Positions 11,699 through 31,846 of a stretch of 32,000 nucleotides of DNA are shown one piece after another. The first letter of the stretch is position 1. Each line of letters opens with the position of its first letter. Source of the stretch: Planctomycetales bacterium (GTDB lineage: Bacteria; 4484-113; JAFGCY01). The stretch is taken from positions 2,790,001-2,822,000 of the forward strand of contig CP060262.1 of assembly GCA_022646745.1 (NCBI GenBank). The letters are read 5' to 3'. A model generated the notes under the pieces. That model was not told where the DNA came from. It did no database searches and was given only the letters and a program-made list of their open reading frames with translations. Both the position numbers and the translations under genes were made by a program.

Positions 11699-11960
11699 CA
11701 ACCAGGGTGCTGGTTGCTGGTTGCTGGGAGCAGAATCAGAAGCAGAAGCAGAATCAGGATCAGAAGCTGAAGGCAAACGGCAATAGGCAGTAGGCAGAAG
11801 AAGGAAGGAAGAAGGCTAAAGGTAGAAGGCGAGATCAAAGTACTGCATGCTCCACTGGCCGCTTCAGTCGTGTACAACCAGCTCCTTCCTCACTCGATTG
11901 ACTTCCTGACTCATTGACTTCGTGACTCCTTGAGCCGCGATCCTTCAAGCAGTCACCTCC
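11699..11960. repeat. Composite low-complexity/palindromic element C
   Basis: Hairpin CAACCAG-GGTG-CTGGTTG (11699..11716) sits right after the epimerase stop. Then GCTGGTT x2.5, followed by seven degenerate CAGAAK hexamers (11731..11772). A GAAGG-rich purine run extends to ~11830. The pyrimidine-rich counter-arm carries a 16-nt tandem duplication, ATTGACTTCCTGACTC / ATTGACTTCGTGACTC (11897..11928). Confidence 0.75.
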
Positions 11961-11980
11961 CAGGCCGATATCCCTGAGGC

Positions 11981-13090
11981 ATGCCAGCACAATCCAGCCA
12001 GCAGCACTCTGCCTTGTCCCTTGTCAGCGGACCTTCCGAATCACTGCTGGCAGGGCAGGTCTACCAGGCCCGGGTCAGCCGCGTGCATGCGGGGCAGCTG
12101 GAACTGGCAATCGGAGACAGTTGCCTGCTGGCCGACTCCGTCTACAGGTTCCGCCAGGGGGACTGGCTCAGCCTGCGCTGCATGGGCCGGCAGGATGGGC
12201 GGCTGCGTTTCGAACTGGTGATGCCGGAGGGTGGGCAGGCACGGGAGAGCCTGGCAGCCCTGGCCCGGGCGAGCGGCGTTTCCAGCGACAAGGCCTCAGT
12301 CGAGGCAGTGGCTGAGCTGCTCAGGCTGGGCTTGCCGGTTCGGCCCGGGACTGTAGCACTCCGGATGGAATTGCAGCGCAGCGATTGCCAACTGGATGGG
12401 GAGCTGGCGGCAGTGATCATGCGCCTGCAGGCAGCTGGGCTCGACATTGATCAACCAGGCCTTGCCGCATATGGCAAATGGCGACAGGGTGGCGGCAGCC
12501 TGGCCGGGCTGATCCGCTGTAGCTGTCCGCAACTGGCGGGCAGGCTGCTTGCCGGGGCTGATGGCATCGTACATAGCCCGGCTGCCATCCGTGGGATTCT
12601 CCACAGTCTGTACGGCAGTCCTTCGTTAGTCACTTCAAATGATGGGGCCGCTGGTCCTGAGTCCTGCTGCGACTCACTGGCTGGACTGCTGGCCCTGCTT
12701 GCCACACTGGCTGAACTGGAAAAGCCGAAACTCAGGTTCCGGCTACCCTGTACGGCTGCTGGCGGGGACTTTGACATCGAGATTGAATACACTGCACTGG
12801 GCCGGCGCAACTACAGGCAGTGCTTCAGTGCCATGCTGTCGCTGCAAGCAGCGCAGCGACCGCCATCGCGCATCCAGCTGGTTGACACAGGCAGCACGCT
12901 GCAGGTCTCGATGCTTGCCGGGGATGATTCGCTGCCGGAGCGGATGCGGAGGATCAGTATGCCAGGCTCTTCACAGCAAAGTGCCACGCAAGCATCTGGC
13001 AAGGAAGGCCGGAGCCTTGCCACACGTCTGCCGCATACCTTGATGGAGCAGCTGGCAAGAATGGTCGCCGTGCTTCAGGAGCGCTGCTGA
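11981..13090 (+). CDS. Hypothetical protein (no family recognised; weak, unverified resemblance to flagellar hook-length-control type proteins)
   Basis: 369-aa ORF with host-like codon bias. Ala/Leu/Gly-rich. Its 3' end overlaps the convergent adenosyltransferase gene by 16 nt. Confidence 0.5.
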   Translation: MPAQSSQQHSALSLVSGPSESLLAGQVYQARVSRVHAGQLELAIGDSCLLADSVYRFRQGDWLSLRCMGRQDGRLRFELVMPEGGQARESLAALARASGVSSDKASVEAVAELLRLGLPVRPGTVALRMELQRSDCQLDGELAAVIMRLQAAGLDIDQPGLAAYGKWRQGGGSLAGLIRCSCPQLAGRLLAGADGIVHSPAAIRGILHSLYGSPSLVTSNDGAAGPESCCDSLAGLLALLATLAELEKPKLRFRLPCTAAGGDFDIEIEYTALGRRNYRQCFSAMLSLQAAQRPPSRIQLVDTGSTLQVSMLAGDDSLPERMRRISMPGSSQQSATQASGKEGRSLATRLPHTLMEQLARMVAVLQERC

Positions 13091-13629
13091 CGGCTCTGCC
13101 AGGCTTCCTCGGGTGCGCCATGCACGTGGTTGGCATAACGCGCCAGCACGAACAGCAGGTCCGCGAGGCGGTTCAGGTAGCGCAGCGCGACGGCGTCGAA
13201 GCGCCCCTCCTCACTCTCGAAAGCTGACACCGCCAGCCGTTCGGCACGGCGCGAGACGGTGCGGGCATGGTGCAGCGCAGCGGAGACCGGGTGCCCGGCG
13301 GGCAGGATGAAGTTAGTGAGCGGCGGCATCTCGGCGGTCAGCTCATCGATCCACTGTTCCATGTTGGCAACATCGTCATCGCTGACGCGCGGGTCGTCCG
13401 GCTTGCCGGCGGCCAATGTGGCACTGCATTCAAACAGCTCACACTGCAGCTGGTGCATGATCGCGGCCAGCTTGTCGTTGTGCTCATGCAGCGCGCGGGC
13501 CACGCCGAGCACACTGTTCAGCTCGTCCACCGTGCCGTAGGCCTCCACCAGCGGGCTGGCCTTGCTGACGCGTTCCCCGCTGAACAGGCTGGTCTTTCCC
13601 TTGTCACCGCCGCGTGTGTAGATCTTCAT
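13075..13629 (-). CDS. PduO-type ATP:cob(I)alamin adenosyltransferase
   Basis: MKIYTRGGDKGKTSLFSGERVSK..VEAYGTVDELNSVLG is the canonical PduO-type N-terminus. I chose the ATG at 13629 (GGAGG 5 nt upstream) rather than the track's 13647. Confidence 0.85.
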   Translation of the reverse strand: MKIYTRGGDKGKTSLFSGERVSKASPLVEAYGTVDELNSVLGVARALHEHNDKLAAIMHQLQCELFECSATLAAGKPDDPRVSDDDVANMEQWIDELTAEMPPLTNFILPAGHPVSAALHHARTVSRRAERLAVSAFESEEGRFDAVALRYLNRLADLLFVLARYANHVHGAPEEAWQSRQQRS

Positions 13630-13663
13630 GTCTGCCTCCGGGGACATTATCCCGGATGGGATA

Positions 13664-13744
13664 GGAAGCAGAAAGCAGGGAGCAGAAAGCAGACTGGGTT
13701 GTATCCACAGAGTTGTGATCTCCTGCTCTCAGCTCTCAGCTTCC
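13664..13744. repeat. Imperfect palindromic element D, immediately upstream of the flagellin promoter
   Basis: Purine arm GGAAGCAGAAAGCAGGGAGCAGAAAGCAGAC. Pyrimidine arm CTCCTGCTCTCAGCTCTCAGCTTCC. Shares GAGCAGAAAGCAGACT (13680..13695) with element B. The loop word CCACAGAGTT is the reverse complement of AACTCTGTGG in the loop of B. Confidence 0.75.
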
Positions 13745-13755
13745 TTCTCGCTGGC

Positions 13756-13783
13756 TAAAGCCCCACGCCTTTCATGCCGATAC
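13756..13783 (+). promoter_or_regulatory. Sigma28 (FliA/SigD)-type flagellar class III promoter
   Basis: TAAA (13756..13759), N16, GCCGATAC (13776..13783), against the consensus TAAA-N15-GCCGATAA. Lies ~130 nt upstream of the flagellin ATG. GGAGGAA sits 6 nt before the ATG. Confidence 0.6.
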
Positions 13784-13913
13784 ACAGCCTGATGGACCAT
13801 GTGGCAAGGATGCCCAGGCGGTCCCAGGGAGAAAAGTGGAAGGATGCGGAGGCCTGCGCGGCTGGACCAGTGATCCATTCCATTTCTCCCCCGTATTCAT
13901 GGAGGAATAGTGG

Positions 13914-16601
13914 ATGTCGATACTGAGGATCAACCAGAACCCGGTTGCGATCAATGCCAACCGCAACCTGAAGGTGACGGGCATGGCGATCAGCCGCTCG
14001 CTGGAGAAGCTGAGCTCCGGCCTGCGCATCAACCGCGCTGCCGATGACGCCGCCGGCCTGTCCATCTCCGAGAAGCTGCGGGCCCAGATCAAGGGCCTGA
14101 ACCGCGCTTCCGCCAACTCGCTGGACGGCATCTCGCTGATCCAGACCGCGGAAGGTGCGCTCAACGAGGTGCACAATATCCTGCAGCGCATGCGTGAGCT
14201 GGCCGTGCAGGCTGCCAACGGCGTGTACACCGCCAATGACCGCCAGGCCCTGCAGCTCGAGATCAGCGAACTGACGGATGAAATCAACCGCATCTCGCGC
14301 ACCACTGAATTCAACTCCAAGCGCCTGCTGGACGGCACCCTCGGGGCGCTGATCTCGACCGATGACTTCAGCCGCATCAAGGGCGTCGTCACCGGCAGCG
14401 TCGGGTTGGGTGGCAACTTCGTGATGCGGGCTGTTGCCAAGACCGCCGGAGTGCTGCAGAAGCAGAAGAGCGACGTGTTTGCCGTCAAGCATGACGGGGA
14501 CAGCGTCGGCAGGCTGAACTACCTCAACACATGGCGCGCCGATGCCAGCCTGAAGACCGCCAATGCGAGCGGGGCGGGCAACACCGGACTGTACCAGCTA
14601 GAGGTGCCGGCCACCGCCTTCGGCAGCGTGGCGGTATCCAGCGTGCTGGATGGCAGCGTGCGCATCGGCAATGCGATTGGTGCCGGCGGTGGTGCGACCC
14701 TCGGACAGAACATGCAGGCCGAGGAGCTCAGCATCGGTGACAAGGTGATGATGACGCTCGACACGGTTGGCGGTGTACAGACGGTCTCGATCACGATTCT
14801 GTCCCTCAACACCACGAACGGCGTACTGGCCAGCCAGATCAGTGCTGCGCTGGGCGGACTGACGACGGGCGTGGCCTTTGACGGCGCGGCCAACAACAAC
14901 AACTTCAGCGTCGCGCTGGCCGCCGGAGTGACGATCCTGAACACGCAGTTCATTGACTACGACGGCAGCGGCTCGCAGTTCCACCTGAGCTTCTCAGCCA
15001 ACGGACAGAGCAACCGCATGTTCAGCGCATTTGACCTGTCGTTCTTCAACAACACGAATGCCTGGAGCAGCACGCTGACCCGCCCGGCCGGTGACAGCGG
15101 GGCGCGTTTCAGTGTCGGGGATGGCACAACCGGCACGCTGCACCTGCGCTTTGACACGCGCTACGACTGGAGCACGGTCAGCATTGCCGGCGTGACACGC
15201 ACCGACGAAATCAGCTGGAGCAAGATCTCCGGCAAGAACTCACTGCAGGATTACGGCAGGGTCTGGCAGGACGGGCCGATGCCCGCCAATGGCACCTTCC
15301 TCGTCAGTGCGGTGGATTCCCGCACCTACGCCGTATTCAGCTTTGACAACCAGAAGTACACTGACCTCGTGGCCACGGGCTGGGACCAGGGCGATGCGAT
15401 CGCCGCGGCGCGCGGGGCGCAGGTCGGGGCCAACACCTCGATCGGTGCCACCTTCGACGGCACAGGCACCACGATCGCCAACCTGCGGATCACATTCGAC
15501 GGCATCCTGCAGGCCGGTGAGACCGCGACATTCAACGTCGGCACCGGCAATGTGCTGACCGCCGACCAGCAGAACACGCTGGCCAGCATCGCCCGCTTCC
15601 AGGAGTTCGAGGTGTTCAACGGCCGCAGCAACGTGCAGCTGGACATCTACCTGCGTGGCACGGCCAACCGCACCACGATCAACGTCGGCAGCAATGACAC
15701 CCTGGAGGACCTCGCCGGAAAGATCAGCCTGGCGATCTGGAACCCGGACGGCAGCGGAGTGGTGCAGAGTGCGGTGATCAACCCCGACAACCCGCCGGAC
15801 CTCGTGCATGTCAACACGCTTGGCAACGCCAAGGGCACGATCAGCATCACCACCCCCGTGCCCGGTTCGCAGATCGTGCTGGCCGCGGATGAGAGCCTGC
15901 TGAAGACCCTGTCACTCGTTGAGGTGGCAAAGGGCAAGAGCCCGGTCTACAGCGTGAGCGCCTTCAACCTGGAGGAGAATGCCAGCGTCGGCAGCATCCT
16001 GACGGATTCCAACGAGATCAACGGGCTGCTGCCCGGCCTGCGGATCATCTTTGACAACACGCTCGGACTGAAGCTGGACCCGCAGCCCCCGACAAACCTG
16101 AATGGCGGCGTGAACGGGATGAACAGCTTCGCCTTCCCGCTGGCCTATGAGTCCCCGGTGCTGTCCTTCAGCGGTGAGGTGGACAGCTTCTTCATCCACG
16201 TCGCCCCGCGCGGTTTCCAGCTGCAGATCGGTGCCAACCAGGGCCAGACCATCGACAGCTTCGTCGCTGACACTTCGGCCACGGCACTCGGGATCGAGGG
16301 CCTGCTGGTGGTGGACGGCGGACTGGCGCAGGAAGCGATCTCGCTTATCGACGTGGCGATAAACCGCGTCAGTGACCAGCGTAGCCGGCTCGGTGCGATC
16401 CAGAACCGCCTCGAAAGCACGATCCGCAACCTGGACGTGGCCAGTGAGAACCTGACCGCATCCGAGAGCCGGATCCGTGATGTGGACGTGGCACTGGAAA
16501 CGCTGACGAGCACCCGCAACCAGATCCTGCTGCAGTCCGGCGTGGCAGCCCTGGCCCAGGCCAACCAGCTGCCGCAGGCGGTGCTGCAGCTGATCCAGTA
16601 G
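13914..16601 (+). CDS. fliC: Flagellin, giant form (895 aa) with a ~600-aa central variable region
   Basis: N-terminal D0/D1: MSILRINQNPVAINANRNL..LSSGLRINRAADDAAGLSISEKLR..GISLIQTAEGAL. C-terminal D1/D0: QRSRLGAIQNRLESTIRNLDVASENLTASESRIRDVDVALE..LLQSGVAALAQANQLPQAVLQLIQ. Confidence 0.92.
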   Translation: MSILRINQNPVAINANRNLKVTGMAISRSLEKLSSGLRINRAADDAAGLSISEKLRAQIKGLNRASANSLDGISLIQTAEGALNEVHNILQRMRELAVQAANGVYTANDRQALQLEISELTDEINRISRTTEFNSKRLLDGTLGALISTDDFSRIKGVVTGSVGLGGNFVMRAVAKTAGVLQKQKSDVFAVKHDGDSVGRLNYLNTWRADASLKTANASGAGNTGLYQLEVPATAFGSVAVSSVLDGSVRIGNAIGAGGGATLGQNMQAEELSIGDKVMMTLDTVGGVQTVSITILSLNTTNGVLASQISAALGGLTTGVAFDGAANNNNFSVALAAGVTILNTQFIDYDGSGSQFHLSFSANGQSNRMFSAFDLSFFNNTNAWSSTLTRPAGDSGARFSVGDGTTGTLHLRFDTRYDWSTVSIAGVTRTDEISWSKISGKNSLQDYGRVWQDGPMPANGTFLVSAVDSRTYAVFSFDNQKYTDLVATGWDQGDAIAAARGAQVGANTSIGATFDGTGTTIANLRITFDGILQAGETATFNVGTGNVLTADQQNTLASIARFQEFEVFNGRSNVQLDIYLRGTANRTTINVGSNDTLEDLAGKISLAIWNPDGSGVVQSAVINPDNPPDLVHVNTLGNAKGTISITTPVPGSQIVLAADESLLKTLSLVEVAKGKSPVYSVSAFNLEENASVGSILTDSNEINGLLPGLRIIFDNTLGLKLDPQPPTNLNGGVNGMNSFAFPLAYESPVLSFSGEVDSFFIHVAPRGFQLQIGANQGQTIDSFVADTSATALGIEGLLVVDGGLAQEAISLIDVAINRVSDQRSRLGAIQNRLESTIRNLDVASENLTASESRIRDVDVALETLTSTRNQILLQSGVAALAQANQLPQAVLQLIQ

Positions 16602-18756: not shown

Positions 18757-18844
18757 GGAGGAGTGGCCGAGTGGTTTAAGGCGGCAGTCTTGAAAACTGT
18801 TTGGCGGCAACGTCACGGGGGTTCGAATCCCTCCTCCTCCGCCA
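18757..18844 (+). tRNA. tRNA-Ser (anticodon UGA), CCA encoded
   Basis: Folded by hand. Acceptor GGAGGAG/CTCCTCC. D-arm GCC-GAGTGGTTTAA-GGC. Anticodon stem GCAGT/ACTGT with loop CTTGAAA (anticodon TGA). Long variable arm. T-arm GGGGG-TTCGAAT-CCCTC. Discriminator G plus CCA. Confidence 0.9.
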
Positions 18845-27157: not shown

Positions 27158-28873
27158 ATGAAAAGCAGACTGGCCAGCTTGCTGTTCGTGCTCGCAACCG
27201 GCTTCGCGCTGGCGGGCTTCATCGTGTCGCTGTACACCCACTGGTACTTCGCCAACCACTACTGGCTGAAGACCGGCCTCGCCATGCTGCTGACCGTGCC
27301 GGGCTATGCGCTCGCGCTGTCCGGTGGCAATGCGAAGCTGTGGCGTGGCTTCGGCTGGTACTGGATCGGGCTGTACGCCCTGTCCGTGTTCCAGCATCGC
27401 AGCATTGACCTGCGTGAGCTGAGCTTCGTGGCCGGACTGGACTATGAGGCCAGCATGGTCTGGCTGCCGGGCATCGTGCTGCTGGCAGTGGCCATGCTAA
27501 ACATCATCAGGCAGAAGCGTGCAGAGGCCGCGGCCCGGCGTGAGACCAGGCGTGCATTGGCTTTCCGCCGCCGCCTGCGCGAGATCCACGGCCAGCCCGT
27601 GGTGGCCACCGGTGAATGGATCCGTGAGCGACTGCGCTCCGGCAGCATCGTGCTCTTGCTGGGCTTCGCCACCATGCTCGCGCTGGGCGGCAGTGTGCTG
27701 GCTGATGAAGCGGATGCCGAGCCTGACAACGGCATCGACCGCCATTCCGAATTCAAGGACGAGGCCCTGCGCCACTGGCCATCGATGCCGGACATCTCCG
27801 GTGTCTACCCGCAGGCGGCGCATTCGCAGGAACGCACGACCTATTTCATCGAGATTGACAATGTGGTGGACGGCGAGATCCGCATCGTGTCCGACGGCTT
27901 CAACGGGGTGGTTGGGCATGTACTGGCTCCCGTCTCCAACTACAACAAGGAGGGTTTCACCGCCTCCGGTTGGGCTGAGAACGGCACATGCACCGCCAGT
28001 GCCGTGAACGCGATCCACCTCAAGGTGAAACATAACTATGAGACCGGCCGCGCGACGATCTTCTCGCTGGTGCCGATCGAGTTCACCACCTTCGACCCGA
28101 AGTCCTACAAAAGCTACTTCAACCAGAGCAGCACGTTGTTCACTGACATCACCGCCGGCAGCGAGATCTTCGGCGGCCAGTGGGCACCGCTGGTCAACAG
28201 CCCGCTGACCTTCCAGCGCGGCGAGGCGGACTGGCAACGCGTGGACGAGAGCTATGTGCCGGCAGTCGGCGACCAGATGCGCATCACCGTCAGCCGCCGC
28301 AAGTACAATCCCGAGTGGATCGAGTTCGAGAACGGCTTCGGCGGCCTGATCTGGATCAAGGAGCTGGGGATGGACCCGTACCCGATCGGCCAGGTGCTGA
28401 AGCCCGTGGCCGGCGTGGGGCGCTTCCTCGGCACACAGTACGCCGAGCGGGGCCGGATCCGTGCCGCACACCCGGGCGTAATTGATATCTCCACCTCGCC
28501 ATATGACGTAATCGGCGGCTTCCAGATCATCCCGCGTGACCATGCGATGTCCAGCGAGATGAAGTTCGCCCGCCTGAAGACGCAGTGGATGGTGGTTGGC
28601 CCGCTGTGGGCGCTGGACCCCTCCTGGGAAGGCCTGCCGCCGCTGTTTACGGACTACCTCTACCCGGCCTTCACGCCGGCCTTCAATGCGGACGGCAGCG
28701 TGAATGAGGATGTGCAGGGAGCGGCGGTGTTCCTCGACCGATTCACGGTGCGGGCCCGCTACCGCGACAGCGAGGACCCGACGCAGTATGAGCTGCTGCG
28801 CGAGTCCGTCTACCTGGACTACGATGCGCTGGAAACCATGACGCATGTGCGCATCTACTTCCCGCGGGGATAA
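27158..28873 (+). CDS. Hypothetical membrane protein: N-terminal multi-TM region plus ~370-aa extracytoplasmic domain
   Basis: 571 aa with host-like composition. TM segments LASLLFVLATGFALAGFIVSLY, LAMLLTVPGYALAL, WYWIGLYALSVF, VWLPGIVLLAVAML, IVLLLGFATMLALGG. I recognise no family. Confidence 0.65.
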   Translation: MKSRLASLLFVLATGFALAGFIVSLYTHWYFANHYWLKTGLAMLLTVPGYALALSGGNAKLWRGFGWYWIGLYALSVFQHRSIDLRELSFVAGLDYEASMVWLPGIVLLAVAMLNIIRQKRAEAAARRETRRALAFRRRLREIHGQPVVATGEWIRERLRSGSIVLLLGFATMLALGGSVLADEADAEPDNGIDRHSEFKDEALRHWPSMPDISGVYPQAAHSQERTTYFIEIDNVVDGEIRIVSDGFNGVVGHVLAPVSNYNKEGFTASGWAENGTCTASAVNAIHLKVKHNYETGRATIFSLVPIEFTTFDPKSYKSYFNQSSTLFTDITAGSEIFGGQWAPLVNSPLTFQRGEADWQRVDESYVPAVGDQMRITVSRRKYNPEWIEFENGFGGLIWIKELGMDPYPIGQVLKPVAGVGRFLGTQYAERGRIRAAHPGVIDISTSPYDVIGGFQIIPRDHAMSSEMKFARLKTQWMVVGPLWALDPSWEGLPPLFTDYLYPAFTPAFNADGSVNEDVQGAAVFLDRFTVRARYRDSEDPTQYELLRESVYLDYDALETMTHVRIYFPRG

Positions 28874-28877
28874 CCTA

Positions 28878-28906
28878 TTGACATAACCATTAGACCTTTG
28901 TACTAT
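28878..28906 (+). promoter_or_regulatory. Near-consensus sigma70 promoter for the island gene, positioned for a leaderless or very short-leader mRNA
   Basis: TTGACA (28878..28883), 17-nt spacer, TACTAT (28901..28906). The ATG at 28915 lies only 8 nt after the -10 box, with no Shine-Dalgarno between. Confidence 0.5.
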
Positions 28907-28914
28907 GTTTATTA

Positions 28915-30723
28915 ATGAAGATTAATGAAATTAAAATAAAGAACTACAAAGGCATTGAGAGTCTTCGCCTTGAGTTTGACAACGGATTTCGATCTAACGT
29001 TGTTACACTTGTTGGATTGAATGAGAGTGGTAAAACTACCATTTTGGAAGCAATTAATGACTTCTACAAGCTAAATAGATTTGAAAAAAACTTAGATATT
29101 ATTCCAAAATCTAGAAAAGGTAATTTTAATGACACAGTTGAAATCGCATTCGTATGCGAGATTACGAAGGAAGATACGGATTTAATTGATGAGTTTTTGC
29201 ATGAACATAAACTGAAATATACCTCATTACCCATGAATATCGAGATTAGAGTAAGAGTCTATTACAGGGATTCAAAATACTCAATGCATAAATTAGGAGG
29301 CGAATTTGTCGGTGAATTCAAAGTTCGTAAGGGAAAATCAAATAAGACGGTAGATTTTAGTTCATTGGAAGCAGTCGTAGAAGATTTCTTTTGGTTTATT
29401 TATGATAACTTATTACCTCCCGTAATTTATTATCCAAACTTTTCTGAGACTTTTCCAAGGGCAATCTATGTAGAGGAGGATTTAACACCAATTGAAGGTA
29501 CACTGAAAAATTCATATTTTACGGAAGTCCTAACCGACATACTTGATAGTCTGGAAAAAGGATATGAACTTCAAACTCATATAGTAGATAGAATCGGTGT
29601 GCCTGATCAAGAAGATAGTCTTAACATAGTATTAAATGAAATGGGCAAAGCTATAACTAACGCTGTTTTTAGAAATCAAGATTCTCCCTTCTTTTCAACA
29701 GAGTTGCTAGTGAGGTTTAAAGACAGGATTATTAGTGGGAAGAAGGTGATTGAGATAAAAATATATAAAGATCCAGAGGAGTACTTTCCAGATCAAAGAA
29801 GCCTAGGTTTCAGATGGTTCTTTGCGTTTGTTCTGTTTACTGAATTCAGATCAAAGAGAAAAACGGATTATGGGAGAAGGCTATTTTTGTTAGATGAGCC
29901 TGCTTCCAATCTGCACAGTAGAGCACAAGAGCAGGCTCTGCAAATTCTAGTAAACATGTCTGAAAATAATTCATTAATCTACAGTACACATAGTCCACAT
30001 ATGATTCATCCAAAATGGTTAGAAGGAGTACATATTGTTATTAATGATGCAATAAAGCCTTCAGACGGATTGAGTTCAGAAGATTCACCTACAAATGTTA
30101 GAACAACGCCATATAGAAACTTTGTGGCAGAGAGTTTAGATCAGGAAAGTTATTTTAAGCCGATATTGGATTGTCTGGAATATAGGCCAAGTAGACTAGA
30201 GCTAGTTCCTAAGCTAATTGTTGTGGAGGGAAAGGGGGATTTCTATTGCTATTCATATTTCTTTACAAAGCAATTCATTGGTGAGTTTGATTTCAGAATA
30301 TATCCAAGTACTGGATCGACTAGTAGTCATTTTGCTGTATCTATGTATTTGGGATGGAATCGGGATTTTATTGTGCTTTTAGATAGTGATCATGGAGGCA
30401 CAAGTGCAAAGGAGAAACTTCTAAGGAAATTAGGACTTGTAGCCGAGCCTTTTGTTTACACATTGGCGGATGTTTGTGAAACATTTAATAGTTATACATT
30501 AGAAGATTTAATAAAAGAGGATGTACACAAATCAATTGAAGTAATAGGAATTGAAGGTAACATGAGTATCAAAACAAAAATTGCTAGGTCTTTTGAGTTA
30601 TTATATGCCACAGATCACGAATTTGACTTTTCTGATTTGGTAATTGCTCGTATGAGAAAAGTTGGTGATTGGTTGCAGAACAAACTTAATCAAATGGAAG
30701 GTCGTATTGTTGATGTTCAATAA
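28915..30723 (+). CDS. ABC-type ATPase fused to a Toprim nuclease domain: OLD-family nuclease / fused PARIS (AriA-AriB)-like candidate defence protein
   Basis: 602 aa. N-terminal MKINEIKIKNYKGIESLRLEF. Walker A GLNESGKTT (aa 34-42, nt 29014..29040). Signature-like RSLGFRWFFAFVLF. Walker B/D-loop RLFLLDEPASNLH (D327 E328). H-loop IYSTHSPH. C-terminal Toprim: LIVVEGKGDFYCY (E438, nt 30226..30228) and LLDSDHGG (DxDxxG, D490/D492, nt 30382..30390). Confidence 0.85.
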   Translation: MKINEIKIKNYKGIESLRLEFDNGFRSNVVTLVGLNESGKTTILEAINDFYKLNRFEKNLDIIPKSRKGNFNDTVEIAFVCEITKEDTDLIDEFLHEHKLKYTSLPMNIEIRVRVYYRDSKYSMHKLGGEFVGEFKVRKGKSNKTVDFSSLEAVVEDFFWFIYDNLLPPVIYYPNFSETFPRAIYVEEDLTPIEGTLKNSYFTEVLTDILDSLEKGYELQTHIVDRIGVPDQEDSLNIVLNEMGKAITNAVFRNQDSPFFSTELLVRFKDRIISGKKVIEIKIYKDPEEYFPDQRSLGFRWFFAFVLFTEFRSKRKTDYGRRLFLLDEPASNLHSRAQEQALQILVNMSENNSLIYSTHSPHMIHPKWLEGVHIVINDAIKPSDGLSSEDSPTNVRTTPYRNFVAESLDQESYFKPILDCLEYRPSRLELVPKLIVVEGKGDFYCYSYFFTKQFIGEFDFRIYPSTGSTSSHFAVSMYLGWNRDFIVLLDSDHGGTSAKEKLLRKLGLVAEPFVYTLADVCETFNSYTLEDLIKEDVHKSIEVIGIEGNMSIKTKIARSFELLYATDHEFDFSDLVIARMRKVGDWLQNKLNQMEGRIVDVQ

Positions 30724-31846
30724 ATTAGAGAGTTTGCGCACGTCTAATTCCTGTTTTGTATGCCCTTTGATTCTCTTTATTCTCATTTGCAACACCGCGC
30801 ACGCCGAGCCCTTCGCCGGTGCATCCGGCATGGCACAGATTTCTGACAACGCCTACCTCTGCGTGCAGGACACCAAGGCCGACCGGCCAGGCAGCCGGAT
30901 CGGCATCCTGACCGTTGACACCGAGAAAGGCGGTTATGACTACCTGCCGCTCGAGCCGGACTGGGAGGGAGAGCTGCCGCATGACCTGGAGAGTGCATTC
31001 GCGCTGCGGGACCGGCCCGGTGAACTGCTGCTCTGCGAAAGCGGGGCCTACGAGAATTGGACCACGCACGAATACCACATCGGGCGCATCTTCCACATCC
31101 GCCTGACCGCGGCAGCCGAGAGCTGGGACTTCGAACTGCTGGGCACGATCCCGATCCCGGAACACCTGCATGAAATCGAGGGGATGTTCCTGCTGCCCGT
31201 TTTCAATCCCGAGGACATCCAGTTCGACCGCGACCTGTTCGGGGACGTGGATGTGGCACGCGATGCGCTGGTGCAGGAAGCAATGGCTGCGGCAGGACTG
31301 GAAGAAGCCGGCGCGGATGAGGCTGCACTGGATTGGGGTGCCCCAGGGGTCAGGCAGCCTCAGCCATCAGACCTCCCCGGGCGTGACCTGGCCTATCTCA
31401 TCCTTTGTACCAGGGGTGGAGATGAGGCATATGAACCGGCCAGTTTCCATGAGAATGTGATTGACCTGAAGAACCACGAGCTGCGTGAGCTGCGCAATGG
31501 ACAGGGAATTGATATCAGTGTTCCGCCGCAGTCAGACCCCTTCCAGCGCGGCTGCAGTGATGTATACCTGGACAGGGTCGGCATCCTGTGGATCGTCAGC
31601 TGCAGCGACCTTGGTGACAACGGACCGTTCAACTCCCGCATCTACCGCTACGGCCAGTACGATATCGAGAGAGGCTATGGGATGTCACGCTCAATCTATG
31701 ACAACACCTCGTGGTTCATCTCCGGCCTGAAGGTTGAAGCGCTCTGCGGCAGCGTGATGGAGGGTTCAACACTCTGCTATGCCACCGATGATGAGGGATT
31801 CGGCGGGATCTGGCGTTCACTCGGTGCGGCAACCAGCCTGCGCTGA
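30713..31846 (+). CDS. Secreted hypothetical protein with a chimeric (island-encoded) N-terminus
   Basis: ATG at 30713 gives MFNKLESLRTSNSCFVCPLILFILICNTAHA|EPF, a classic signal peptide with an AHA cleavage site. The first ~26 codons are AT-rich and the rest has host composition. Overlaps the nuclease gene by 11 nt. The mature part has no family I recognise. The track's start at 30662 is less likely. Confidence 0.65.
   Translation: MFNKLESLRTSNSCFVCPLILFILICNTAHAEPFAGASGMAQISDNAYLCVQDTKADRPGSRIGILTVDTEKGGYDYLPLEPDWEGELPHDLESAFALRDRPGELLLCESGAYENWTTHEYHIGRIFHIRLTAAAESWDFELLGTIPIPEHLHEIEGMFLLPVFNPEDIQFDRDLFGDVDVARDALVQEAMAAAGLEEAGADEAALDWGAPGVRQPQPSDLPGRDLAYLILCTRGGDEAYEPASFHENVIDLKNHELRELRNGQGIDISVPPQSDPFQRGCSDVYLDRVGILWIVSCSDLGDNGPFNSRIYRYGQYDIERGYGMSRSIYDNTSWFISGLKVEALCGSVMEGSTLCYATDDEGFGGIWRSLGAATSLR

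Follow-up and report, generated by a model that had tools for sequence, protein, structure and literature searches.

The stretch of DNA analyzed here (32,000 nucleotides (nt), positions 2,790,001 to 2,822,000 of contig CP060262.1 of a Planctomycetales bacterium, referred to below as the window) contains, close to its 3′ end, an AT-rich segment of ca. 1.92 kb with a single open reading frame (ORF). The 602-amino-acid (aa) product of this ORF is predicted to be a nuclease of the OLD family, in which an N-terminal ABC-type ATPase is joined to a C-terminal Toprim domain. An earlier note, made from the letters of the window alone, had described the segment as a horizontally acquired anti-phage module of OLD-family or fused PARIS-like type.

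A compositional island between two host genes

The G+C content, calculated over 300-nt intervals, drops from 0.65 at positions 28500–28799 to 0.31–0.38 between 28800 and 30749 and is back at 0.62 at 30750. Since the other 28.8 kb keep a G+C content of 0.55–0.67 throughout, the AT-rich segment is the sole compositional island of the window. At 20-nt resolution, the breaks fall at ca. 28870 (…CGCGGGG/ATAACC, with the slash marking the break here and below) and at ca. 30793 (…CATTTGCAAC/ACCGCGCACGCC), in agreement with the abrupt drop that the earlier note had placed at 28874–30792. The G+C content at third codon positions (GC3) is 0.28 in the ORF compared to 0.85–0.89 in the two upstream host genes. 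The features of the locus are as follows:

27158–28873, plus strand: host gene upstream of the insert, with a 571-aa product that matches neither Pfam nor PADLOC models; its stop codon TAA (28871–28873) lies at the composition break
28870–30793, no strand assigned: AT-rich foreign insert, ~1.92 kb, about 34% G+C, defined by the G+C profile and by empty sites at two related loci (L006 and L008)
28878–28906, plus strand: putative σ70-like promoter, TTGACA-17 nt-TACTAT, 10 of 12 consensus positions
28915–30723, plus strand: gene for the predicted 602-aa OLD-family ATPase-Toprim nuclease (ORF, Pfam, homologue invariance, fold, alignment with P2 Old)
28915–30006, plus strand: ABC/SMC-type ATPase region, residues 1–364 (Pfam AAA_15, 3.3e-20; AAA_21; AAA_23)
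30202–30720, plus strand: C-terminal Toprim core and helical bundle, residues ~430–602 (Pfam matches of homologues, fold, alignment with P2 Old, invariance)
30713–30805, plus strand: predicted chimeric signal peptide of the downstream gene (sequence comparison with L006)
30713–31846, plus strand: host gene downstream of the insert, with a product of 377 aa (chimeric start) or 338 aa (alternative ATG at 30830) (gene calls, L006 homologue)

Thus, the island holds one promoter-like site and one ORF, just as had been noted before; no terminator-like site was found in the insert region. The ATG of the OLD gene is located 8 nt past the −10 hexamer, and there is no Shine–Dalgarno sequence ahead of it (positions 28878–28917); transcription from this promoter would therefore give an mRNA with little or no leader.

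Relatives of the locus were retrieved by scanning reference genomes with the 571-aa upstream protein, which yielded eight loci in metagenome-assembled genomes (MAGs) labelled UBP7 or Planctomycetales. In two of them, L006 and L008, both flanking genes are adjacent, with no OLD gene in between and, in L006, a gap of 43 bp. The insert of the window took the place of ~110 bp of host DNA, made up of the native intergenic sequence plus the downstream gene's 5′ end. Both the composition break and the empty site are seen directly in the DNA, and the empty site in two related genomes, together with the GC3 values, bears out the earlier claim of horizontal acquisition.

The exact 602-aa protein is encoded on five contigs (NCBI GCA_020440665.1, ENA ERZ28655783 and Logan SRR12358676, SRR12358675 and SRR7638773), which come from at least four samples and three sources (NCBI, ENA and Logan) and whose DNA is 100% identical to that of the window. 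Three short contigs, L002, L004 and L005, each span both junctions. Since the same junctions occur on five contigs from at least four samples, the insert is not a chimera. Two separate insertion sites for the identical protein were also considered and rejected, L004 and L005 being the same DNA with differing gene calls.

Comparison of the junctions confirmed that both edges of the insert abut host coding sequence, and the reading frames of both neighbours run on across the junctions. The 3′ end of the upstream gene reads …CGGGGATAA/CCTATTGACA in the window, compared to …CGGGGCAACTGA in L006 and …CGGGGCTAG in L008. The insert either lies flush against the upstream stop codon or supplies it. If the shared GGATAA is ancestral host sequence, the insert may start just past the stop codon and not supply it.

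On the other side, there is an 11-nt overlap between the ATG of the downstream gene (30713) and the stop codon of the OLD gene, an arrangement that implies joint transcription, with translation of the downstream gene coupled to that of the OLD gene. Gene callers report the 377-aa downstream product on L002 and L003. Its predicted signal peptide is chimeric, with the n- and h-regions (MFNKLESLRTSNSCFVCPLILFILICNT) encoded by the insert and AHA/EPFAG encoded by the host; in L006, the downstream gene has a native signal peptide, MHRNILSLVCAYLLLLSISAAHA/EDFAG. In the chimeric version, the n-region is charged, the hydrophobic core spans 13 residues (Kyte–Doolittle mean >3) and the cleavage motif is of the A-x-A type. 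The host-derived part of the downstream gene (30794–31846) is 55% identical to its counterpart at L006:11832–12839, compared to 81% for the upstream gene and 96% for an RND pump, and its GC3 of 0.73 is lower than the 0.85–0.89 of its neighbours. To judge from these values, the downstream gene appears to be fast-evolving or exchanged.

At one further related locus (L007; JAWLAZ010000002.1, MAG AC1.30), a different low-GC segment of ~2.9 kb (positions 11717–14445, G+C 0.36–0.55) shares its starting nucleotide with the insert of the window (…CGGGGATAA/GATTTTC). This segment contains a 361-aa ORF on the plus strand and a 388-aa ORF with a lipoprotein-like N-terminus on the minus strand, and the 338/377-aa downstream gene is missing. 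With different AT-rich cargo thus found behind one and the same left boundary, the site is a variable hotspot in this lineage. Neither cargo ORF has a Pfam match or a significant PADLOC match, so that a defense hotspot is not established.

No machinery of mobility was found at the locus, as the earlier note had stated. There is no helicase, integrase or transposase among the called neighbour genes, no recombinase gene nearby and no target duplication. No convincing direct or inverted repeats flank the insert; the best candidate, a 25-nt inverted repeat with 76% identity and one arm within the ORF, is probably due to chance. The only tRNA gene of the window, tRNA-Ser (TGA) at 18757–18844, is 10 kb away and has no association with the insert; it is located directly upstream of a 918-aa Peptidase_S8 gene. 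Searches for the donor context, using the 5′ head and 3′ tail of the insert and the signal-peptide segment, gave no meaningful match in about 100 homologue loci. About 3–7 kb past the 3′ end of the window (L001:14932–18806, minus strand), there is a gene for an AAA_23/SMC_N protein of 953 aa and, next to it, one for a protein of 338 aa; the two could be an SbcCD-like or other ABC-ATPase defense or repair pair, unrelated to the insert.

Domain architecture and conserved residues

The ATPase and Toprim motifs quoted in the earlier note are all present in the translation: GLNESGKTT at residues 34–42, SLGFRWFF at 296–303, LLDEP at 325–329, SNLH at 331–334 and THSP at 358–361, followed by VEGKGD at 437–442 and DSDHGG at 490–495. 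Residues 1–364 match Pfam AAA_15 with an E-value of 3.3e-20, and this match, as well as those to AAA_21 and AAA_23, exceeds the curated Pfam cut-offs. The key residues of the ATPase region are K40 of Walker A, the signature-like S296-LGF, D327-E328 of Walker B, N332-L333-H334 of the D-loop and H359 of the H-loop.

Conservation was assessed in an alignment of 34 homologues that are only 34–38% identical to the window protein. On the ATPase side, K40, S296-L-G-F, D327, E328 and H359 are invariant, and in the C-terminal part, the same is true of E438, G439, D442, D490, D492, G495, E530 and K553. The acidic residues E438, D442, D490, D492 and E530 are therefore all conserved in the family. T528 is located two residues ahead of E530; homologue P0001 has Ser at this position.

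The C-termini of 21 homologues were scanned singly, and 13 of them matched Pfam PF20469 OLD-like_TOPRIM (best E-value 5.6e-5), seven Toprim_2 and six Toprim. No match to DUF4435 (Pfam, E ≤ 10) or to the PADLOC AriB model was found among these 21 C-termini. Among PADLOC models, it is mad4 that the Toprim core matches best, with 12 of the 21 family members retrieving it (best 2.7e-6); for the C-terminal 237 aa of the window protein, PADLOC returned mad4 only, as a weak match with an E-value of 0.025.

An AlphaFold2 model of the full protein has a predicted local distance difference test (pLDDT) score of 82, and a separate model of the C-terminus scores 81. OLD nucleases have a dimerization domain inserted in the ATPase; in the model of the window protein, insertions are seen in the ATPase fold, with strands at residues 74–147 and helices at residues 196–252. 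In a Foldseek search with the full-length model, the best match was Ts OLD of Thermus scotoductus (6p74; 5.9e-15, 651 aligned columns), structures of the Gabija protein GajA ranked 2nd to 6th, and the heads of Rad50 and SMC proteins were also retrieved. The C-terminus alone matched the C-terminal region of Burkholderia Bp OLD (6nk8; 7.7e-4), Ts OLD (6p74) and Xanthomonas Xcc OLD (6njw), each with a probability of at least 0.99, and nothing else specific; there was no AriB chain among the 50 best C-terminal fold matches listed. When PDB sequences were searched with the full protein and with a full-length profile, matches were obtained in the ATPase region only, and a C-terminal profile produced only Rab GTPase matches with E-values of 0.3–0.5, which were discarded as spurious.

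Profile comparison with hhalign aligned the protein with the archetype, Old of phage P2, over 166 columns, from Walker B through DxD (probability 90.5%, E-value 1.4e-6). VEGKGD is in register with VEGKTE of P2 Old and LLDSDHGG with LADCDFLS, which places the Toprim Glu and DSD opposite Glu and DCD. The architecture of the protein, the invariance of its catalytic residues and its homology to OLD proteins are direct results of these comparisons, and on this point the earlier reading holds. Of the Pfam models named in the earlier note, AAA_15, AAA_21 and AAA_23 were found, as was OLD-like_TOPRIM in homologues, but DUF4435 was not.

In Ts OLD, metal A is coordinated by E377, D431 and D433 and metal B by D381, S478 and E480 (PMC7049728). 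The spacing of E438-x3-D442, D490-x-D492 and T528-x-E530 in the window protein is that of the Ts OLD ligands. The correspondence at metal B and a role of K553 are suggested by spacing rather than by superposition.

OLD class and homologues in other genomes

OLD nucleases are divided into classes by gene context: Class 1 comprises single genes, Class 2 genes are accompanied by a UvrD-like helicase (Gabija), Class 3 genes belong to retrons and Class 4 to PARIS, where AriA is either separate from or fused to the DUF4435 protein AriB (PMC12392090, PMC10568477). The single-gene size of the insert, which the earlier note had considered unusual, is what defines Class 1 (PMC7049728, PMC12392090), and several such genes are active against phage, namely P2 Old, Vc OLD of Vibrio cholerae (PMC12392090) and YbjD (PMC13261556).

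The called neighbour genes at the window locus include neither a helicase nor a reverse transcriptase (RVT) gene. Among 118 immediate neighbours at 63 homologue loci, scanned with Pfam, no partner family has more than seven members, and neither UvrD-type helicases nor DUF4435 are among the 25 commonest families. The gene lacks a partner, and, since there is no helicase, reverse transcriptase or DUF4435 alongside, its organization is that of Class 1. Assignment to Class 2 (Gabija) was rejected, there being no UvrD/PcrA/Rep-like helicase adjoining; the downstream gene encodes the 377-aa predicted secreted protein without a Pfam match. A Class 3 retron effector was likewise rejected, with no RVT gene among the called neighbours and RVT_1 in only 2 of the 118 homologue neighbours (the noncoding RNA was not searched for). 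The NCBIfam model of the retron Eco8 effector scored 37.5 bits against a cut-off of 250.

The protein resembles Class 1 OLD nucleases in being the product of one gene, with an N-terminal ABC ATPase, a C-terminal Toprim domain and no conserved partner. It is like P2 Old in the register of the Toprim residues and like Ts OLD, its best full-length fold match, in the E-x3-D, DxD and S/T-x-E pattern, which agrees with the ligands of metals A and B. It differs from Ts OLD in that the two are just 15% identical in the structural alignment, and in that the window model has a C-terminal helical bundle (helices 534–594) containing the invariant Lys553, whereas Ts OLD is without a C-terminal helical domain (PMC7049728). 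In addition, the signature-like SLGF is invariant in the window family but degenerate in Class 1 (PMC7049728). Some features are reminiscent of Class 2: the C-terminus alone is closest to that of Bp OLD, GajA follows Ts OLD in the full-length ranking, and there is a helical region after the Toprim core whose conserved Lys may correspond to K562 of Bp OLD.

Homologues are numerous; none is more than 40% identical to the window protein, they are 590–650 aa long and many are from Patescibacteria. An exhaustive search of 1.84 billion representatives clustered at 50% identity with a profile of the C-terminal domain retrieved 1,114 clusters at E ≤ 0.001, of which 303 reached E ≤ 1e-30, with most members 590–650 aa long. 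By these counts, the window protein belongs to a clade that is small and well delimited. Some representatives are only 170–350 aa long, with the match starting near residues 4–13 (P0124, 247 aa; P0150, 231 aa; P0167, 250 aa; P0188, 241 aa); such short forms could be due to truncation at contig ends, or else they could be real split versions with a stand-alone Toprim, similar to AriB or MAD4. A scan of viral contigs gave five loci only, so the family is not notably phage-borne.

At the 53 homologue loci with sufficient flanking sequence, the median difference between gene and flank G+C content is −0.079, and the gene is more than 10 points lower in 21 of the 53; homologues are therefore not uniformly host-like in composition. 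With a difference of about −0.29, the insert of the window is at the extreme of this comparison. The closest relatives are located on Patescibacteria/Paceibacteria-type contigs and have a gene for a tyrosine integrase, an HTH_17 (excisionase-like) protein or a recombinase fragment within a few kb, which suggests small integrative elements as their vehicles. The mobile-type genes near them are as follows:

L103, 3323–4818
L105, 582–767
L017, 6269–6463
L104, 1910–2332

Of 89 loci sampled, 11 have Type I restriction-modification (R-M) genes in their flanks, and the usual arrangement is hsdM-hsdS-[OLD]-hsdR; no other proteins are found as often directly next to homologues as HsdS and HsdR. The remaining loci, about 88%, have no R-M genes in the flanks examined. 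The R-M-associated loci are:

L027, L036, L037, L040, L014, L015, L034 and L068
also L016, L066 and L093

L015 also contains Kiwa (KwaA/KwaB), and L014 also contains AbiEii, PIN_12 and Peptidase_M78. In a rough neighbour-joining tree, seven R-M-associated loci form one clade, with the window protein on a long isolated branch outside of it. There are no R-M genes in the window or in the 10 kb beyond it.

Origin and probable function of the insert

The reading that we favor, with a probability of about 0.72, is that the island is recently acquired foreign DNA with one intact OLD nuclease gene of Class 1 type and that its composition has scarcely shifted toward that of the host. What follows on nuclease and ATPase activity, the trigger, the use of the promoter, the function of the signal peptide and the way in which the DNA was inserted is what we infer for such an element. 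If the protein works like P2 Old, Ts OLD and Vc OLD, DNA would be nicked or cleaved by a two-metal Toprim nuclease under the control of the ABC ATPase, with E438, D490 and D492 as the predicted ligands of metal A, D442, T528 and E530 as those of metal B and K553 of the C-terminal helical bundle possibly assisting. Damage to replicating phage DNA, or to the cell's own DNA in an abortive response, would then limit phage spread; such an anti-phage role is suggested by family membership. The OLD gene would be expressed from its own σ70-like promoter with a leaderless or near-leaderless start, and the downstream host gene would be translationally coupled to it via the 11-nt overlap. The insertion would most likely have occurred by illegitimate recombination, with no dedicated recombinase, and selection may have kept an in-frame variant in which the upstream stop codon was retained and the downstream gene received an export-competent signal peptide.

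Several observations weigh against this reading. Sites of the promoter-like class are not enriched over shuffled sequences in the insert region (7 found vs. 6.2 expected), expression of a gene with 34% G+C may perhaps be poor in a host with a GC3 near 0.87, and the immediate surroundings of the gene are housekeeping genes, not a defense island. The C-terminal 237 aa of the window protein itself match no Pfam model at E ≤ 10, so that the Toprim assignment rests on homologues, fold and profile comparison; in having its own Toprim domain below all Pfam thresholds, the protein differs from typical Class 1 members. The C-terminal fold matches have modest TM-scores (template modelling scores) of 0.33–0.46, and the hhalign comparison with E. 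coli YbjD, which covers the P-loop region only (probability 61%), is uninformative. Finally, Cran1, an archaeal OLD-family ATPase, functions in cell-cycle progression and not in defense (PMC12796447).

The R-M-associated homologues invite two further readings. The first, which is speculative although possible, is that the protein belongs to an undescribed small OLD clade whose ancestral setting was perhaps hsdS-[OLD]-hsdR in Type I R-M operons, where it would have been either a second nuclease, resembling a fusion of MAD3 and MAD4, or a guard of restriction, with the window copy as a free-standing escapee. It may also be that the gene passed from an AT-rich, Patescibacteria-type donor to a UBP7/Planctomycete-like host at a recombination hotspot and was tolerated there by virtue of the in-frame signal-peptide swap.

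The second, which we consider doubtful, is that the window gene is an orphaned copy of an R-M-linked OLD-like effector that acts as a second nuclease or as a guard upon inhibition of restriction, following the logic of PrrC, PARIS or MAD3-MAD4 of the methylation-associated MADS system, with its partner lost or distant. This proposal is in line with the 11 R-M-flanked loci, seven of them in one clade, and with the similarity to MADS: the N-terminus matches mad3 (PADLOC, 2.2e-13) and NCBIfam MAD3, the Toprim core is nearest to mad4 and a sub-clade of the family resides inside Type I R-M operons. In MADS, mad6, mad7 and mad8 are mandatory, and a contribution of mad3 to toxicity is suggested since mad5 can be deleted only jointly with mad2 or mad3 (bioRxiv 10.1101/2023.03.30.534895). 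Unlike the MAD3 and MAD4 pair, however, the window protein has both parts in one polypeptide, and its NCBIfam MAD3 score is 26 bits against a cut-off of 420. Membership in MADS itself was rejected, mad6-8 not being found next to the gene (both immediate neighbours are without a PADLOC match), so that there is resemblance only. In homologues L027, L036, L037 and L040, the gene lies between hsdS and hsdR, an operon position that is also taken by PrrC/RloC, but the family and the predicted chemistry are unrelated (a Toprim two-metal nuclease vs. an anticodon nuclease), and the copy in the window has no R-M neighbours and lies outside of the R-M-embedded clade. Since R-M operons often host unrelated defense genes, co-location may mean only defense-island clustering. 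Some members of the family may thus plausibly be R-M-linked effectors, but the case for the window copy is weak.

It is improbable that the gene encodes a non-defense OLD-like ATPase or is an unexpressed or silenced passenger without present function in the host. Cran1 is a precedent for the former, while the low GC3 and the housekeeping surroundings would fit the latter, and the five copies, being all identical, give no sign of purifying selection. Yet the ORF is intact and all family-invariant catalytic residues are kept, and the homologues are compositionally foreign in most hosts and are found near integrases, R-M and other defense genes. Foreign composition combined with integrase or defense neighbours is typical of mobile defense genes, not of housekeeping genes.

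A single-polypeptide PARIS, i.e., a fused Class 4 OLD that is triggered by anti-restriction proteins and cleaves tRNA instead of DNA, is very unlikely, four independent tests having spoken against it, and here the earlier note was not upheld. PARIS is detected as an AAA_15/AAA_21 ATPase together with DUF4435 (PF14491), joined or adjacent, and fused PARIS genes do exist (PMC9122126). The protein is like PARIS in combining an AAA_15-type ATPase with a Toprim-type nuclease, its VEGxxD..Y motif resembles DUF4435, PADLOC AriA is the best match of the whole protein (1.7e-23) and the location of a family subset beside Type I R-M fits a "guard of restriction" logic. However, the AriA match is limited to the generic AAA_15 region (residues 1–364), the PADLOC model of the AriAB fusion covers only the P-loop region (residues 1–54), and the Toprim domain is of the OLD-like type and not DUF4435, with neither DUF4435 nor AriB detected in the family C-termini and three OLD C-terminal regions ranking first in the fold search. 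Close to excluded, lastly, is an assembly chimera or contaminant with AT-rich reads of another organism joined into a GC-rich contig: the 29-point jump in G+C precisely at gene boundaries resembles a chimeric join, but the five identical contigs, the junction-spanning contigs and the reading frames that continue over the junctions speak against it.

Taken as an acquired Class 1-type OLD gene, the insert adds a divergent, easily overlooked lineage to the Class 1 OLD nucleases, one whose own Toprim domain is invisible to Pfam and for which PADLOC reports mainly a generic "AriA". To our knowledge, no other OLD class is as poorly understood as Class 1, in which phenotypes are available only for P2 Old, Vc OLD and YbjD. 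As a natural example of how a single defense-type gene enters a chromosome without mobile-element machinery, the locus is also unusually clean; the insert brings a putative promoter and most of the downstream signal peptide, with the upstream stop codon supplied or abutted, and the empty site and the alternative cargo in related genomes allow comparison. Current understanding is not overturned, and the protein is ordinary for its kind. What is most interesting is the anatomy of the insertion and the R-M-embedded sub-clade, which contrasts with the reviews known to us, where Class 1 OLD genes are placed away from other defense genes.

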